Source: Nitrospirota bacterium (GTDB taxonomy: Bacteria; Nitrospirota; Thermodesulfovibrionia; Thermodesulfovibrionales; UBA1546). Taken from it: 64,000 nt of DNA. Position numbers and translations under genes: made by a program. Under the pieces are notes generated by a model, which worked only from the letters and a program-made list of their open reading frames with translations, ran no database searches and was not told where the DNA came from. Shown piece by piece: positions 29,519 through 63,783 of this stretch. Location of the stretch: contig WPIF01000006.1 in NCBI GenBank assembly GCA_009773185.1, forward strand, positions 14,677 to 78,676, in the 5' to 3' direction. Position 1 is the first letter of the stretch. Each line of letters begins with the position of its first letter.

Positions 29519-29707
29519 TTGTTGAAGAAAATAATAGCTTTAATTCTTTCATTAGTGCTTGTAGTAGCATTTGCGCTTACAGTATCAGGATGCAAAAAAG
29601 CTGAAGAACCGGCACCTGCACCAGCAGCAGCGCCAGCACCGGCTGAGGCACCAGCAGCACCAGCAGCACCGGCAACACCGGCACCGGCAGCGCCAGCAGG
29701 TAAGTAA
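29519..29707 (+). CDS. Small lipoprotein with an Ala/Pro-rich tail
   Basis: GGAGG SD and a TTG start. Signal peptide plus lipobox LTVSGC, then a (A/P)n tail. Confidence 0.6.
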   Translation: MLKKIIALILSLVLVVAFALTVSGCKKAEEPAPAPAAAPAPAEAPAAPAAPATPAPAAPAGK

Positions 29708-35955: not shown

Positions 35956-36282
35956 ATGTGGCGAAGGGTTAAGAATAATATGGATTCAGGAGTAGAAAAG
36001 ATAAAGTGGTTTTCCACTGTGCTGGCCGAAAGAATGAAGATAGAATTTTCAGTGATTAAGCTTTTGCAGGAGCGGGAAAAAAAGGATAAGGACAGGGCAG
36101 AGAAGATGAGGCTTGTCGGAGAACGCGTGTTTGAGTTAAGAAATCATTCGGAAAAAAATATATTTAAGGACAAGGCGATAACTGAGGCCATAGTTGAGAT
36201 TGAGAGGCTTGATGCCGAGCTTGAGGATATAAAGAAAAAGGCGTCAGAGATGAGCAATATAGAAGGGGAAGAAGGTAAATAG
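35956..36282 (+). CDS. Small charged coiled-coil protein, unknown function
   Basis: AAGGAGG SD then ATG 35956. Its stop codon lies inside the first unit of the 17-bp array. Confidence 0.5.
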   Translation: MWRRVKNNMDSGVEKIKWFSTVLAERMKIEFSVIKLLQEREKKDKDRAEKMRLVGERVFELRNHSEKNIFKDKAITEAIVEIERLDAELEDIKKKASEMSNIEGEEGK

Positions 36283-36373
36283 GGGAAGAAGGTAAATAGG
36301 GGAAGAAGGTAAATAGGGGAAGAAGGTAAATAGGGGAAGAAGGTAAATAGGGAAGGTAAATAGGGGAAGAAGG
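36265..36373. repeat. 17-bp tandem array (5 perfect units plus 2 partial)
   Basis: GGGGAAGAAGGTAAATA x5 (36265-36349), then GGGAAGGTAAATA, then GGGGAAGAAGG. Confidence 0.95.
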
Positions 36374-46247: not shown

Positions 46248-46931
46248 TCAATTCCTTATTATTTCTCTGGCACTGCCGTCCCTCATCTCAATGATAAGGG
46301 TTACGTAATCTTTATCGTAGACCAATGGGTCATGGGTTGCGATGATAATTGTTTTGCCCTGTTGCTGAAGGTTTCTCATTATGGACAAAAATTCCTCTGA
46401 AAGGTGCGTGTCCAGATGTGCTGTGGGTTCGTCTGCTAAAATAATATCAGGGTTATTAATCAGGGCCCTTGCAATTGCTGCCCTCTGCTGTTCCCCGCCC
46501 GAAAGCTTCTGAACCGGAAAGTCTATCCTCTCGCTCATGCCGAGATTTTCAAGTATCCTTGCTGCACCTTGCCTGAGTTCTGAAGGTTTTATATCAGTGG
46601 GGAGCACCGGAAGCATTACATTATCGCACACAGAGATGCCTTTAATCAGATGAAACTGCTGGAATATAAAACCAAAGGTATTTCTTCGGACCTCTGTCAT
46701 AAATCTTTCAGGAAGACGCGAGACATCCCTGCCTTCAACTATTACCCTTCCTGATGTCGGCCTGCTCATGCATCCTATGAGAGACAGGAGCGTTGTTTTG
46801 CCTGAGCCGCTTGGGCCTTTGAATACAGCGAAGTCTCCTTCCTTAACCTCTATGGAGACATCATTAACTGCGAGAACCTCGTCAGGATTGCCTCTATTAA
46901 AATATTTGGTTGCGTTTTCTGTTTTTATCAT
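46248..46931 (-). CDS. ABC transporter ATP-binding protein (MacB/LolD-like)
   Basis: GPSGSGKTT, LSGGEQQR, ILADEPT. Confidence 0.85.
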   Translation of the reverse strand: MIKTENATKYFNRGNPDEVLAVNDVSIEVKEGDFAVFKGPSGSGKTTLLSLIGCMSRPTSGRVIVEGRDVSRLPERFMTEVRRNTFGFIFQQFHLIKGISVCDNVMLPVLPTDIKPSELRQGAARILENLGMSERIDFPVQKLSGGEQQRAAIARALINNPDIILADEPTAHLDTHLSEEFLSIMRNLQQQGKTIIIATHDPLVYDKDYVTLIIEMRDGSAREIIRN

Positions 46932-46933
46932 TT

Positions 46934-48112
46934 TTATCCCCTCATAACAATATCAGGGTCGGTGATAGATGCCTTCCATGAAGGTATGATTGTTGAGGCG
47001 ATATAAGGGACTATAGTAAGTGACATCAGTATTGCAATCTGATAGAAATCTATGAATGGAGCAAGCCTGAATTCAGGATAGATAACAGACCAGCCCTTCA
47101 GGGCCGGGGCCAGTAAGGAGGCGCCCATAAAAAAGATATGTATATAAGCAAGGATAATTCCGCACATGAAAGAAGTCAGCGAGATTACAAGGCCTTCCCA
47201 GAACTTCATTTCAAGCACATCAGATGTTTCCCATCCTATTGCCTTAAGAATGCCTATTTCCTGTTTTTCTTCAGCGCTGAGTCCTGTTGCCTTGTCCCAT
47301 GCCAGTATGATAAAGGCAATCAGGGCTCCCATAAACAGCGCTATTATCAGCCCGCTTCTCCATCCGAAAACAGCATCATAAGTCCTGATTATCTCATCCC
47401 TGAGGATAGGGCGGGAATCAGGAAACTGCTCTTTTATTTTTCTGGCAACAGTCGGTATTTCCGCTTCATTGTTGACATGCACTGCAAGGTCTGTTGCAGT
47501 ATTTTCCGGCATGCCGACCAGAGTTTTGAAATCATCCTCGCTTATTACAATCAGGTCGGCTGTCATTATCTCTGAGGCCGACTCAAAGACCCCGACAATA
47601 TTAAAATTCATCCACTTATTGTCCGCAGACTGTAGGTATAATGTGCTTCCTAAATCTTTTTTAATAACTCTTGCCTCAGCAATGCCCCTGCCGATTGCGG
47701 CAACACCTTTCTCACGAGGCGAAGGCATCCGGCCGCTGACAACTTTATTGTTTTCCAGTCCTGAGGCGCCAATGCCGAGTATCGTATAATTTGCCTTTAC
47801 ACCGGAATCATAATAATATCCCCAATATCTTGGTTCAGCACCTGAGACACCTGATATCTCCATAATGTCATTCGCGAGCCCTGTAGGAATAAGTTCATGT
47901 CTTCCGGCCCGCATTTTCTGTACAACAATCTCAGGTGAATCCTTGAGGAGCAGGTGCGCCTCCTGTCTGAGTGAATAGGAAAGGAATATGATGGAGCTGA
48001 CTGTGAATATCACAAGGGTAAAGACCATGATAATCCCTATGTTCTTAAACTTGCGCCTTAAAAGTGACTGGAGTGTATAATCCAGAATATTTATGTGTTT
48101 CTCAAGGGCCAT
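46934..48112 (-). CDS. FtsX-like ABC permease
   Basis: N-terminal TM helix, a large periplasmic domain and 3 C-terminal TM helices. Confidence 0.75.
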   Translation of the reverse strand: MALEKHINILDYTLQSLLRRKFKNIGIIMVFTLVIFTVSSIIFLSYSLRQEAHLLLKDSPEIVVQKMRAGRHELIPTGLANDIMEISGVSGAEPRYWGYYYDSGVKANYTILGIGASGLENNKVVSGRMPSPREKGVAAIGRGIAEARVIKKDLGSTLYLQSADNKWMNFNIVGVFESASEIMTADLIVISEDDFKTLVGMPENTATDLAVHVNNEAEIPTVARKIKEQFPDSRPILRDEIIRTYDAVFGWRSGLIIALFMGALIAFIILAWDKATGLSAEEKQEIGILKAIGWETSDVLEMKFWEGLVISLTSFMCGIILAYIHIFFMGASLLAPALKGWSVIYPEFRLAPFIDFYQIAILMSLTIVPYIASTIIPSWKASITDPDIVMRG

Positions 48113-59293: not shown

Positions 59294-59680
59294 CTACCTG
59301 GATTTTTTGGCGTACTGGATGCTGATTTCATATGAAACGCTTGCGTGTTCAGGAGAAGGGGGACTGGTTTTTCCTTTGCAGACTAACTTGCCCTTTCCTG
59401 ATTTCTTGCGGTTTTTAATCAGGTCTGCAATGGCTGGGGTTAAATCAAAGCCCCCGTTGACGCAATCTTTAATCATGCATTCCATATTGAAATAGGCATA
59501 ACTGGCAGGAAGGATATTAATGGTGCGCTCCATAAGAACCGGATTTGCTACTTTCTGGTAGTATGTCATATTAATTATAATTGATGAAACTTTAGGGAAG
59601 CGCTCTGAAACCAGGCCGGCATTAATCCTGTTTTTTTTGACAAGTTCCATCCTTGCGATATAATCTTGCCTGTGTGCCAT
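59294..59680 (-). CDS. Hypothetical protein, no family recognised
   Basis: 128-aa ORF upstream of, and co-directional with, the DUF362 gene. Confidence 0.45.
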   Translation of the reverse strand: MAHRQDYIARMELVKKNRINAGLVSERFPKVSSIIINMTYYQKVANPVLMERTINILPASYAYFNMECMIKDCVNGGFDLTPAIADLIKNRKKSGKGKLVCKGKTSPPSPEHASVSYEISIQYAKKSR

Positions 59681-59873: not shown

Positions 59874-62189
59874 TTACCATTGGCCCAGCGTTCCTTTTAT
59901 CCTTTCAAGTTCAACAGTAGCTTTTGCGTAATCAACCTCAGCCCTTTTTTCAGAGGATAGAGCCTTTGCATATTCCTCCTGAAATTTAAGCACATCGTTC
60001 AGGGTTGCCATGCCAACCTTGAACCTGCCTTTCTCGGCCTCAAATCTTTTTTCTGCTGCTGTCCGTGTCTTCTTTGTTGCGCTGATTGTCTCTGACGCAA
60101 GCTGAACCGTCCTCCATGCCTCTCTTACCTCAGCCGTGATTTTCTGTTCCAGTATCTTCAGGGTGATGCCTGATTTTTCCTCCTCGTGCATTGCCTTGAG
60201 ATAGGTTCCTTCCGCGGCGCTGTTGCCTATTGGTATTCTGAGAGAGAGGCCGAACTGCCATGAATAGTAATCCCCGGAACCCAGCCTGTCAAGGGTATTA
60301 TCATAGGCCCCGTTAAGCCCGTTCAGGCCGGCAGAGCCGATTAAGTTAAGGTCAGGATATTTTTGGTTGTCAAAGTATTTTCTGAGTATCTCTTTGTTTT
60401 TATATTCAATGGAAGCCTGCTTGTAGTCTTTCCTGTTATTAAAGGCCGTATCTGTTGCCTTCTCAACAGGCTGGATATCGGTTGGTATGGGTGTTTTTTC
60501 TATCGGGATAAGCTCGGCCTGCCAGTCCTTCATATTAATTACGACCCTCAGCCTGTCTGCCATATCAAATACCAGCTTCTTTGCCTTAAGCAGGGACTCT
60601 TCCCTTAATGAAGCCTCGGCCTCAGCCTTGAAAATTTCTACGGGTGCAAGTAAGCCCGCGTCTATTTTTGCCTTTGCCTCAGCTAAAAGATTTTGTGCAA
60701 GTTTAAGCGAAAGTTCAGCGACCTCGAAATCGTATCTTGCAAACGCAAGGTCCCAGTATGCCCTGGCTGTATCGGCTATAATACCGATTGATTTATCATC
60801 AAGGCTTAACCTGGCAGCTTCGTAATTATTTTTTGCCACATTAAGATTGCTTTCCTGAATCTCTTTGCCAATGCCTTTAAGCAATGGCTGAGTCATTGTC
60901 AGCACCAGCGCAGAGGTATAATAAGGGTTGGTTGTCAGATATGGCGCGTTGCTTTTCGAGCGTTCATTGGCCCACTTGAGTTCGTATGTTGTCCCTGTGT
61001 TTACTTTGCCGCCAAGGCTGACATCGCCATTTGCTGTTCTTTCTTCTGTGCCTGTAAGAAGGGAAGGTGAACTGGATTTTTTGTAGGACTCGGTTGCCTT
61101 AAGGTCTATATTGGGGTCAAATTCACCCTTCCTGAACTTTATGTCTGCCTCAGCTATCTTTGGATTTATGCGTTCCCCTGCCAGAGACAGGTTTTCCCTG
61201 AGTGACATATTAATTGCCTCACTGAGGGTAAGTTCGAGTTTTTCAGCGGCAGAAACACCGGAAGAGTTGAATATCAAAAGCGCAGAAGCGCAGGAGAACA
61301 GGAGTAATTTCAGGGCTTTGGAACTTTGGAACTTTGGAACTTTGGAACTGTTTCTTAACGTCAGATACCCTGAAAATATTATCAGCACTCCGCCGATGAT
61401 TGAGTTTATGCCTGGCATTTCACTGAGAAATATCATGCTTAAAATTATAGCACTAACCGGCTCGAGATAACCAAGGACAGCAGTTTTGTTGGCAGTCACA
61501 TATTTAAGCCCACTGAAATAAAGCAAAGGGGCTATTGTGGAATGGACTATTCCCATAACAAGAAAAGTCCATAGGGCATTGAAAGGGAATTCTCTAACAA
61601 AAGGCGCAAGCAACAGTATTATGACGATGTTTGAAAAGAAGGCAAGCACAAGCGGGTGGAAGTCCTGTGAATAGAGTCTGATGACTATGATTATAATTGC
61701 GTATGTAAACCCGGATATGATTCCTGCGATTATCCCTGCGGTTTGGCCTTCCTTAAATGAGAATCCGTTGAGCATAATCCAGAGGCCTGCGGAGGCTATG
61801 ATAATTATAATAATGAGTCTTTTTGTGATCTTTTCTTTCAGGAAAACAGGAGCTAAAAATGCAACGATTATAGGTGCAGTATAGTGAGTAAGGACTGCAT
61901 TGGCTATAGTTGTATATTTATATGCGTAGTAATAAGTGAATGTGTTAAAAAGTCCTATGATCCCGAGGAGCATGGGATATTTAAGCCTTTTTATCTCCGG
62001 GATTTCTTTCCGGTAATTTTTATGCGACAGGATTATCCCCTGAACAGTCAGTGCCACTATAACTGAGTAAAAAATAAGGATATGCACTGCAACCCCTGAG
62101 AGCCTTATGACTATTCCAAGAGAGCTCCAGAGGAATATGGCAAGCAGGATATAGAGAGAAGCCATTGCCTGTGTCATAGAAAAATACAT
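59874..62189 (-). CDS. Single ORF fusing an EamA/DMT 10-TM transporter (aa 1-~280) to a complete TolC-like outer-membrane factor with its own signal-peptide-like segment
   Basis: The N-terminal half has two EamA-like 5-TM repeats. After the 8-bp x4 array come KALKLLLFSCASALLIFNSSGVSAAEK and ~470 aa of TolC-type coiled/beta repeats. Confidence 0.6.
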   Translation of the reverse strand: MYFSMTQAMASLYILLAIFLWSSLGIVIRLSGVAVHILIFYSVIVALTVQGIILSHKNYRKEIPEIKRLKYPMLLGIIGLFNTFTYYYAYKYTTIANAVLTHYTAPIIVAFLAPVFLKEKITKRLIIIIIIASAGLWIMLNGFSFKEGQTAGIIAGIISGFTYAIIIIVIRLYSQDFHPLVLAFFSNIVIILLLAPFVREFPFNALWTFLVMGIVHSTIAPLLYFSGLKYVTANKTAVLGYLEPVSAIILSMIFLSEMPGINSIIGGVLIIFSGYLTLRNSSKVPKFQSSKALKLLLFSCASALLIFNSSGVSAAEKLELTLSEAINMSLRENLSLAGERINPKIAEADIKFRKGEFDPNIDLKATESYKKSSSPSLLTGTEERTANGDVSLGGKVNTGTTYELKWANERSKSNAPYLTTNPYYTSALVLTMTQPLLKGIGKEIQESNLNVAKNNYEAARLSLDDKSIGIIADTARAYWDLAFARYDFEVAELSLKLAQNLLAEAKAKIDAGLLAPVEIFKAEAEASLREESLLKAKKLVFDMADRLRVVINMKDWQAELIPIEKTPIPTDIQPVEKATDTAFNNRKDYKQASIEYKNKEILRKYFDNQKYPDLNLIGSAGLNGLNGAYDNTLDRLGSGDYYSWQFGLSLRIPIGNSAAEGTYLKAMHEEEKSGITLKILEQKITAEVREAWRTVQLASETISATKKTRTAAEKRFEAEKGRFKVGMATLNDVLKFQEEYAKALSSEKRAEVDYAKATVELERIKGTLGQW
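61317..61348. repeat. 8-bp x4 perfect tandem array at the EamA/TolC junction
   Basis: TTTGGAAC x4. It encodes SKVPKFQSSK on the minus strand. Confidence 0.95.
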
Positions 62190-62326: not shown

Positions 62327-63172
62327 TTGCTAAAACTTCGTGACGGCATAGTTGAGCTTTACAGAAAGGTTGCCACCTCGCTTCCGCCTGATGTTGAGGA
62401 TGCGCTTAAGGCAGCGTATGCGGTTGAGAAGAAAGGCTCGAATGCAAAGCAGGCCTTGCAGGTAATACTGGAAAATATCCGTCTTGCAAGGGAGACAGCA
62501 AGGCCGATATGCCAGGATACAGGCGTTCCTGTATTTTATGTAAAAACTCCTGTAGGGCTCAGCCAGCTTGAACTTGAAAATACAATAATAGAGGCCACAC
62601 GCATCGCGACTGAAAAGATTCCATTGAGGCCTAATGCCGTTGATATTATCACAGATAAAAATTCAGGAGATAATACGGGATTAGGGTTCCCCGTGATTTA
62701 TATCAGCGATACCCTGAGCAGCACCCTTACAATAGACCTGATGCTTAAAGGTTCAGGCTGTGAAAACATGGGACAGACATATAAGCTCCCCATAGAGGAA
62801 CTTATTGCGAACAGAGACCTTGACGGTGTAGGGAAATGTGTTCTCGATACAGTCTATAAGGCACAGGGCAAGGGCTGCCCGCCGTATACACTGGGAGTCG
62901 GTATTGGCGCAGCAAAGGACCAGGTTGCAAGACTCGCAAAGGAGCAGCTTATGAGAAGGCTTCCTGATATAAATGAGTCCGAGGTCCTCTTCAAACTTGA
63001 AAAGAAACTTTTGCATGAAATCAACAGTCTCGGTATAGGCCCATTGGGATTTGGGGGAAAAACAACTGCTCTTGGTGTAAAGATAGGCGTAAACCACAGA
63101 CATCCTGCATCTTATCTTGTGGATATATCAGTTTCATGCTGGGCTAACAGAAGGGGAAGGCTGATATGGTGA
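62327..63172 (+). CDS. Class I (Fe-S) fumarate hydratase / tartrate dehydratase, alpha subunit
   Basis: TTG start 7 nt after GGAGG. Contains RPICQDTGVPVFYVK. Confidence 0.8.
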   Translation: MLKLRDGIVELYRKVATSLPPDVEDALKAAYAVEKKGSNAKQALQVILENIRLARETARPICQDTGVPVFYVKTPVGLSQLELENTIIEATRIATEKIPLRPNAVDIITDKNSGDNTGLGFPVIYISDTLSSTLTIDLMLKGSGCENMGQTYKLPIEELIANRDLDGVGKCVLDTVYKAQGKGCPPYTLGVGIGAAKDQVARLAKEQLMRRLPDINESEVLFKLEKKLLHEINSLGIGPLGFGGKTTALGVKIGVNHRHPASYLVDISVSCWANRRGRLIW

Positions 63173-63783
63173 AAAAAGCAGAGAGCAGAGAGCAGAGGGC
63201 AGAGGGCAGAGTAATAAATCTGCCTTTAACAAAAAAAGATGCCATGAAGCTCAGGGCCGGGGATGTGGTTTTGATAAATGGTTTGATTGTGACAGGAAGG
63301 GATAAGGTTCACAAGTTTCTTTTTAACGGGAAAAATCAGAAAAAACACATGCCGTTTAATCTTGACGGAGCGGTGCTGTACCATTGCGGGCCTATCATAA
63401 AAAAAACAGAGGGCGAATACAAGGTTATAGCAGCAGGCCCAACAACAAGCATGCGCGTAGAGATGTATGAGCATAAGATAATATCCGATTACGGGCTCAG
63501 GGGCATTATGGGCAAGGGCGGAATGGGAGAGCATACACTCAGGGCGATGAAGGCAAAGGGCTGTGTATATTTCCATGCAATAGGAGGCGCTGCTGCATAT
63601 CTGGCAGACAGGATTAAGAGGGTTGTTGATGTATGGAAACTTGAGGAATTCGGAATGACAGAGGCAATGTGGTTATTGGAGGTTGAGAATTTTCCTGCGA
63701 TAGTGACGATGGATGCGCATGGAAAGAGCCTGCATAAAGAAATAGAAAAAGCTTCATTATTGAATCTTAAAAAACTCGTATGA
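63166..63783 (+). CDS. Class I fumarate hydratase / tartrate dehydratase, beta subunit
   Basis: LRAGDVVLINGLIVTGRDKVHK and GPTTSMR. The first ~15 codons are encoded by a heptamer array. Confidence 0.8.
   Translation: MVKKAESREQRAEGRVINLPLTKKDAMKLRAGDVVLINGLIVTGRDKVHKFLFNGKNQKKHMPFNLDGAVLYHCGPIIKKTEGEYKVIAAGPTTSMRVEMYEHKIISDYGLRGIMGKGGMGEHTLRAMKAKGCVYFHAIGGAAAYLADRIKRVVDVWKLEEFGMTEAMWLLEVENFPAIVTMDAHGKSLHKEIEKASLLNLKKLV
63178..63211. repeat. 7-bp x~5 array at the 5' end of the beta-subunit CDS
   Basis: GCAGAGA GCAGAGA GCAGAGG GCAGAGG GCAGAG. Confidence 0.9.

Follow-up and report, generated by a model that had tools for sequence, protein, structure and literature searches.

The inner-membrane partners recognised in tripartite pumps are of the ABC, RND and MFS types; DMT/EamA transporters are not among them (PMC8277102). 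Outer-membrane pore proteins are seldom fused to other domains (PMC4827864). In Escherichia coli, cysteine export reportedly involves both the EamA protein YdeD and TolC, as summarised in PMC10821248, which cites Wiriyathanawudhiwong 2009. Here, we describe a locus in a 64,000-nucleotide stretch of DNA from a Nitrospirota bacterium (assembly GCA_009773185.1, contig WPIF01000006.1, positions 14,677 to 78,676), hereafter called the window. A single open reading frame (ORF) of this window encodes an EamA/DMT transporter followed by a TolC-like outer-membrane factor, with a perfect 8-bp tandem array at the junction. We consider it likely that this is an evolutionarily fixed fused gene derived from an overlapping gene pair, that the joint is the old TolC signal peptide and is still processed, and that the array is held in frame and does not work as an on/off switch.

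Like the MacAB-TolC tripartite pumps (PMC5985334, PMC8277102), the locus has a channel of the OEP family but, unlike them, pump genes do not flank the gene. The E. coli case, in the summary cited above, offers a rationale for gene linkage, with a DMT exporter leading to the periplasm and TolC leading across the outer membrane. The E. coli genes, however, are unlinked and unfused, and the EamA half found in the window is far below the cut-offs of named exporters.

The closest precedent known to us for the proposed processing is the cytochrome b/c1 precursor FbcH of Bradyrhizobium japonicum, which reportedly contains an internal signal that is cleaved to give two mature proteins. The window gene resembles this precursor, as it is said to be organised, in that one ORF encodes a polytopic inner-membrane protein, an internal signal peptide and a second protein of the periplasmic side. 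Both FbcH products are said to stay in one inner-membrane complex, whereas the TolC of the window would have to reach the outer membrane and trimerise. The locus is a variant of two known kinds of arrangement, the fusion of operon neighbours and the polyprotein with an internal signal peptide. We found no report in the literature of an inner-membrane transporter and an outer-membrane factor made as one chain.

As to the array, the closest described cases are the CTCTT repeats of Neisseria opa (PMC3960869) and the CT repeats of Helicobacter pylori oipA (PMC10564699), where the repeats coding for the leader peptide are long, polymorphic and frequently OFF. The window shares with opa and oipA the presence of non-triplet repeats in a signal-peptide-coding region, all frames of which translate to signal-peptide-like residues. 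Those tracts vary between and within strains, in contrast with the window, which holds 4 units and for which neither number variation nor an OFF allele was found.

One reading frame for an EamA transporter and a TolC-like protein

The fused ORF (771 residues) spans 59874..62189 on the minus strand. It is present in the ORF list, has Pfam matches in both halves and is found with identical DNA in an independent ENA assembly, L010, which is 100% identical to the window across 7.1 kb. The 767-residue form starting at Met5 (62177) is identical to KAF0145558.1, annotated as "MAG: outer membrane protein [Nitrospirae bacterium]" (MAG, metagenome-assembled genome). The original prediction, made from the letters of the window, had a single 771-residue ORF joining a ten-helix EamA/DMT domain to a full TolC-like protein, and the ORF as well as the two EamA and two OEP stretches are confirmed.

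The EamA/DMT half (residues 1-279; 61353..62189, minus strand) contains two EamA repeats (PF00892, 2 stretches, E=3.6e-34, 118.4 bits against a cut-off of 28.2). Hydropathy and the positive-inside rule predict ten transmembrane (TM) helices with an N-in/C-in orientation. This half remains below the equivalog cut-offs of named exporters, with 95 bits against 230 for TIGR00950 (2A78) and 37.7 against 300 for YddG. These scores do not allow a substrate to be assigned.

The mature TolC-like outer-membrane factor (residues 315-771 plus the stop codon; 59874..61247, minus strand) contains two OEP repeats (PF02321, 2 stretches, E=8.2e-42, 143.6 bits against a cut-off of 22) and matches TolC chains of the PDB with E=1e-6 to 1e-5. 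An AlphaFold2 model of the whole chain was computed on a 17-row alignment. Its mean predicted local distance difference test score (pLDDT) is 58.5, and its secondary structure alone was used. Over most residues of the TolC half, pLDDT is 70-92, and the model displays TolC-type strands and long helices. Scores are below the subfamily cut-offs for TIGR01844 (TolC, 111 against 225) and TIGR01845 (NodT lipoprotein, 56.5 against 210). The cysteine of the LLLFSC motif, which arises from a TGC within the repeat unit, was considered as a NodT-type lipoprotein residue. This was rejected, since the cysteine is too early in the hydrophobic core and is not in a lipobox context.

Conservation of the fusion

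Among NCBI, ENA and Logan assemblies, exactly this 767-residue protein is carried by 6 independently assembled contigs. Distinct fused alleles that are full-length and in frame number at least seven, with 74-97% identity. Besides the window, these are L006, L012, L033 and L034 (91-97% identity), L001 (~76%, with variants P0050 and P0051) and L035 (74%). Among the fused alleles, the ratio of nonsynonymous to synonymous divergence (dN/dS) is 0.09-0.17 in the EamA half and 0.07-0.10 in the TolC half. Such low values correspond to strong purifying selection and argue that both halves are functional. Moreover, EamA is selected and translated but lacks a stop codon, so the cell must make the fused chain.

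The fused alleles group together as one clade in a TolC tree, where the two-gene locus L016 is sister or outgroup. When 1.84 billion representative proteins were scanned exhaustively with HMMER, no second EamA-OEP fusion was among the best 150 matches. Four long OEP proteins (P0088, P0153, P0170 and P0172) were examined as further fusions and rejected, their extensions being low-complexity or AMIN regions and not transporters. These comparisons show the fusion to be a genuine, conserved gene that is restricted to a small subclade of uncultivated Nitrospirota.

The 8-bp array and its reading frame

The perfect array, (GTTCCAAA)4, is located at 61317..61348 on the minus strand. On the coding strand (61348..61317), GTTCCAAA is read four times and translated S-SKVPKFQSSK, exactly the junction that had been predicted. 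Tandem Repeats Finder (TRF) delimits it at 61316-61349, with period 8, 4.2 copies, 100% matches and a score of 68. Its perfect lag-8 run of 26 nt is the longest in the window. In 200 composition-preserving block shuffles, the mean was 7.9 and the maximum 11, so the array is not due to chance. A second repeat, 8-bp x2, is found within the signal core at 61278-61293.

The consequences of changing the number of units were simulated. With 1, 4 or 7 units, the frame is open to the TolC stop. With 0, 3 or 6 units, 23 further codons are read before a stop (..PEITPVLLRFCAFDIQLFRCFCR-stop), and with 2, 5 or 8 units the frame ends at once (..KP-stop, CCC TGA). The frame logic proposed earlier is therefore right, including the immediate stop with five units, but the three-unit state yields 23 codons, not about 30. 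It had also been claimed that the TolC part has no ATG, GTG or TTG start of its own. None is indeed present from the array to the hydrophobic core. Inside the core, however, there is one in-frame TTG (Leu304, 61277-61275), and a start at this codon would leave no usable signal peptide.

Origin from an overlapping gene pair

Orthologous loci, whose comparison had been put forward as a check of the fusion, are separate in 11 distant relatives and fused in the clade of the window. The two-gene loci (L016, L019-L025, L027, L028 and L041) belong to distant Nitrospirota, with 47-74% identity, and carry eamA and tolC as adjacent genes that do not share a frame. Between the eamA stop and the tolC ATG there is either an overlap or a distance of a few bases. 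In most of these loci, a Shine-Dalgarno (SD)-like GGAG or GGGG is found within the last eamA codons (..LK-G-E..). The two-gene operon encodes the same proteins in the same order as the window, with conservation of the AEKLELTL mature N-terminus of TolC and of the GYLTL[KR] C-terminus of EamA, and its Lys-rich n-region is also coded by short periodic DNA. It differs from the window by its separate frames, its eamA stop, its tolC SD and ATG, and its units of 7 bp instead of 8 bp.

In the fused clade, the former SD position reads ..LK/R-N-S... The SD is gone, and so is the eamA stop. The old tolC start codon is ATG solely in L035 (..RNSPKV-M-KLLLF..; GTT ATG AAA CTT CTC CTG). The window, L007 and L005 have CTG there, L001 and L002 have CGG, and the alleles with a type B linker (see below) have CGC. 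In the window, alignment to L035 places this CTG (Leu293) at 61311..61313 on the minus strand. In the two-gene relatives, the TolC n-region, M(K)KKFKVKS.., is coded by GTTYAAA(A)-type units, and the GTTCCAAA units of the window are the same tract. By this comparison, the linker is what was once the Lys-rich n-region of the TolC signal peptide.

Linkers of two lengths are observed. The short one, found in L002 and in L035, the earliest-looking fused allele, equals the 1-unit state of the window. Types A (window), B (L006, L012, L033, L034 and L008) and C (L001) are equal in length and exactly 24 bp longer than the short form; in types B and C, the 8-bp units are degenerate. Judging from this alignment, the extra three units (24 bp, 8 codons) arose later, as an in-frame expansion inside an already fused joint. 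The idea that the repeat welded the two ORFs together is thus only half right: the array does stand at the joint, but the merger itself was a stop loss in the overlapping pair, which the 24-bp expansion followed. In four remnant loci (L002, L007, L008 and L036), only TM9-10 of eamA remains, behind trehalose genes. In L002, L007 and L008, this in-frame remnant is the sole source of a start codon for TolC.

The history of the locus can be read as follows. In the ancestral state, a gene for a ten-helix DMT exporter, eamA, and a tolC-like gene were translationally coupled, with the SD inside the last eamA codons. In the subclade of the window, the stop and the SD disappeared, together with the ATG in most alleles, and ribosomes that translate EamA go straight into TolC. 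The GTTCCAAA x4 array is probably a local, homogenised form of a slippage-prone 8-bp-periodic tract in which selection keeps the frame. The relatives represent a stepwise record from coupled pair to fusion: first the SD and then the stop disappear, the start ATG decays, and the linker grows longer.

Predicted topology and processing of the joint

In the fused protein, the n-, h- and c-regions of the TolC signal peptide and its V-S-A↓A site are internal (residues 280-314), not N-terminal. The n-region now forms a Lys-rich, predicted cytoplasmic linker in the EamA frame (residues 280-294, NSSKVPKFQSSKALK; 61308..61352, minus strand), assigned by comparison with the two-gene relatives. The signal-peptide core and c-region follow (residues 295-314, LLLFSCASALLIFNSSGVSA; 61248..61307, minus strand). 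Hydropathy, the model and the conserved boundary suggest that this segment forms TM11, oriented in to out, with a signal peptidase I site after Ala314.

Hydropathy analysis delineates ten TM segments in the EamA half. Lys and Arg residues number 15 in the predicted cytoplasmic loops versus 2 in the periplasmic ones, and both EamA termini are therefore predicted in the cytoplasm. In solved 10-TM DMT proteins, both termini are cytoplasmic (PMC6508934). At the junction itself, where a topology prediction had been advised, the positive-inside count and hydropathy give a cytoplasmic linker and then an in-to-out helix: SKVPKFQSSKALK, with its four Lys, is predicted inside, and the core LLLFSCASALLIF is predicted to cross from inside to outside. 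In the secondary structure of the AlphaFold2 model, ten helices are followed by a coil (280-289), another helix (290-308) and the complete TolC-type pattern. The V-S-A↓AEK sequence obeys the -3/-1 rule. In every fused allele, position -1 is Ala and position -3 is V, S or A. The ↓AEKLELTL boundary is common to the fused alleles and the unfused homologues, in which it ends ordinary signal peptides. A polytopic domain predicted to end in the cytoplasm is followed by a positive stretch, a hydrophobic core and a small-x-small site, an FbcH-like order.

In the proposed mechanism, EamA would insert co-translationally, and the Lys-rich n-region would be a cytoplasmic linker after TM10. The retained signal core would insert as TM11, from in to out, and expose V-S-A↓A in the periplasm. 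Signal peptidase I would then release mature TolC for assembly in the outer membrane, leaving EamA with an extra C-terminal helix. If the internal signal is cleaved, the gene would encode a natural bacterial polyprotein whose halves are sent to different membranes by signal peptidase. Cleavage would also mean that 1:1 synthesis of the DMT exporter and its presumed exit duct is enforced, which hints at a DMT-TolC export route outside the standard tripartite-pump scheme. Because the eamA-tolC pairing is kept across the clade, sequence comparison suggests a functional link between the two proteins.

A hypervariable periodic module at the junction

The linker and the signal peptide together form a hypervariable, recombining, 8-bp-periodic module of ~120 bp (61241..61361, minus strand), delineated by its lag-8 signal (z=8.5), its synonymous divergence (dS) and an allele switch. 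The lag-8 signal has z=4-8.5 in the subclade of fused and remnant loci, and a lag-7 signal with z=3.4-10 is present in most two-gene relatives. Neither the most distant relatives nor controls from the TolC body had comparable periodicity. When the window is compared with the B-type alleles, dS is ~1.0-1.2 in the module versus 0.13-0.29 in the flanks. Site by site, the window matches L034 (B backbone) as far as the end of TM10, then wholly L007 (A type) for ~120 bp (~61241-61361), and is mixed thereafter. Because of this switch from L034-like to L007-like to mixed, the module is a discrete recombining cassette. The junction is also a hot spot of rearrangement. For a signal-peptide-coding module to be both hypervariable and non-triplet-periodic throughout a clade is unusual.

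Various gene arrangements were observed around the junction in relatives. In L013, a TetR-FtsX/MacB-ABC-MFP (MFP, membrane fusion protein) cassette is located exactly between the eamA 3' end and tolC (L013:319-3857), and the tolC signal peptide is unrelated. In L005, a TetR-MacB-ABC-MFP cassette precedes tolC (L005:141-3978), the start of which reads MVRNSPKV, a linker remnant. L007 and L011 come from the same MAG (GCA_030693605.1). L011 carries a stand-alone eamA beside fumarase, ending ..LTLRTNQKGLP-stop, and L007, another contig, carries the eamA remnant joined in frame to tolC. The homology of L011 to the window stops at the base before the array. The two loci share a ~127-bp duplicated segment of eamA TM9-10 (window 61353-61480), and recombination there would regenerate a window-like fused gene. 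Finally, the mature TolC of P0037, P0039, P0042/P0043 and P0046 is at least 90% identical to that of the window but is preceded by wholly unrelated, ordinary signal peptides. The boundary of their homology with the window is exactly the predicted cleavage site.

Weighing of the alternatives

Two readings of the junction had been offered originally. The first, a real fusion with the signal-like helix as TM11 and TolC set free by signal peptidase, is the one retained here, on the grounds of the in-frame alleles, the purifying selection, the lost stop, SD and ATG, the Lys-rich linker and the -3/-1 motif. Some observations nevertheless weigh against it. We infer the cleavage, and even the membrane insertion, of the internal signal from sequence features. 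The AlphaFold2 model is poor over the EamA half (pLDDT below 50). Two in-frame ATGs in TM9-TM10 (Met253 and Met258) could start TolC independently. Where the window has the perfect x4 array, other alleles have degenerate units, which means that unit turnover occurs and that frameshifted variants must arise at some rate. Finally, no MFP or pump genes adjoin the window gene, the only candidate being a 40%-identical ABC ATPase at 46275-46937. In relatives L005, L013, L024 and L027, by contrast, MFP, ABC and FtsX/MacB genes are directly beside TolC, and these MacAB-type neighbours indicate that TolC serves an ABC-type tripartite pump. Given this pairing, EamA and TolC may lack direct functional coupling.

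It could be that TolC is produced mainly from an internal start, either the TM9-TM10 ATGs or the CTG at the old start position, and that the full-length fusion is a tolerated by-product. The remnant loci L002, L007 and L008 must initiate TolC inside what is left of TM9-10, at ATGs that the window also has; in addition, L035 keeps an in-frame ATG at the old start. We nevertheless regard this possibility as unlikely. The SD was lost in the fused clade, no SD-like motif precedes the internal ATGs or the CTG, and in most alleles the start ATG has given way to CTG, CGG or CGC. Furthermore, since there is no stop, every ribosome that finishes EamA goes on into TolC.

A more speculative possibility, to which we give little credit, starts from the module described above. 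It would be a dedicated hypermutable non-triplet cassette, exchanged between strains and a hot spot for pump insertion, that rapidly rewires or silences the expression and targeting of the outer-membrane channel, for instance under phage pressure, the EamA-TolC polyprotein being one outcome. If this were true, the cassette would be a contingency-type locus in a free-living, uncultivated groundwater Nitrospirota. The fused gene would also be the first polyprotein of an inner-membrane transporter and an outer-membrane factor.

The second original reading was that slippage at the array toggles expression of the outer-membrane factor. The locus would then be a phase-variable contingency locus, in which slipped-strand mispairing leaves TolC ON with 4 units and OFF, with EamA only, with 3 or 5 units, allowing for example escape from phages with TolC as their receptor. 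In favour of this reading, the array is perfect and its unit length is not divisible by three. It is placed where such repeats classically occur, in the stretch of an outer-membrane protein gene that codes for the signal peptide (PMC3960869, PMC10564699). A periodicity of 7 or 8 bp extends over the whole module throughout the clade, with synonymous divergence 4-8 times that of the flanks, so unit turnover occurred, and a second non-triplet array is found at another gene start 1 kb away. The alleles themselves tell against a switch. None of the ~10 fused or remnant alleles is out of frame. Both perfect-array strains have exactly 4 units: the array of L007, from another strain with ~94% nucleotide identity and another genomic arrangement, is identical to that of the window. 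In most fused alleles, the units are degenerate and non-slippery, and yet the length is the same. An OFF state would also alter the C-terminus of EamA. Four repeat copies are short for a high-frequency switch.

Variant states were also searched for directly. Ten proteins were simulated: seven for the states with 0, 1, 2, 3, 5, 6 and 7 units, two with alternative starts, and one in which TolC begins at the first Met downstream. A collection of 15 billion proteins contained none of the ten (0/10), in contrast with the 4-unit protein and its 6 contigs. The exact DNA pattern of the 3' edge of the array gave 0 matches in JGI metagenome contigs. The on/off reading is therefore not borne out, and we judge phase variation improbable.

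Three candidate variants were examined and rejected. P0052 (116 residues, 96% identical), considered as a truncated junction variant, is a fragment of a TolC whose signal peptide is unrelated, in an assembly full of frameshifts. P0054, whose EamA tail reads ..NSSKVLKK-stop, was considered as an OFF allele; a MacB operon follows on the opposite strand, and there is no tolC downstream. P0040 (contig of 5081 bp) and P0049 (5086 bp) are not a frame-differing pair but separate loci.

That the genes are truly separate and were joined by mis-assembly or collapse at the repeat, or that tolC is a dying pseudogene after loss of its ATG, is extremely improbable even though repeats are classic sites of assembly errors and the TolC part has no canonical start, given the identical protein on six independent contigs, the same array in another strain and genomic context (L007), the TolC dN/dS of 0.07-0.10 and the non-repetitive linkers of the fused L001, L006, L012, L033, L034 and L035.

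Other repeats and neighbouring genes in the window

A 7-bp x5 array (GCAGAGA GCAGAGA GCAGAGG GCAGAGG GCAGAGT) is located at 63177-63211 on the plus strand and corresponds to codons 5-15 in the ORF of the fumarase beta subunit (63166-63783). This ORF overlaps the fumarase alpha stop at 63172, and the gain or loss of one unit leads to an immediate frameshift. It is thus a second non-triplet array right after the start of a translationally coupled gene. At the same place, L011 has a different, also periodic, N-terminal extension.

A 17-bp x6.7 array (AGGGGAAGAAGGTAAAT) is found at 36264-36373 (TRF score 192). Its beginning coincides with the final codons and the stop of an ORF on the plus strand (..SNIEGEEGK-stop), and each of its units contains an SD-like GGGGAAGAAGG and a TAA. 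A compound GCA/ACCAGC/39-bp repeat at 29608-29699 (TRF score up to 102) is probably a low-complexity coding stretch.

Directly downstream of tolC, an ORF of 128 residues (59294-59680, minus strand) has no Pfam match on record. Its position is conserved in L007, L008, L010 and L031, and it is followed by DUF362, ferredoxin and flavodoxin-like genes.

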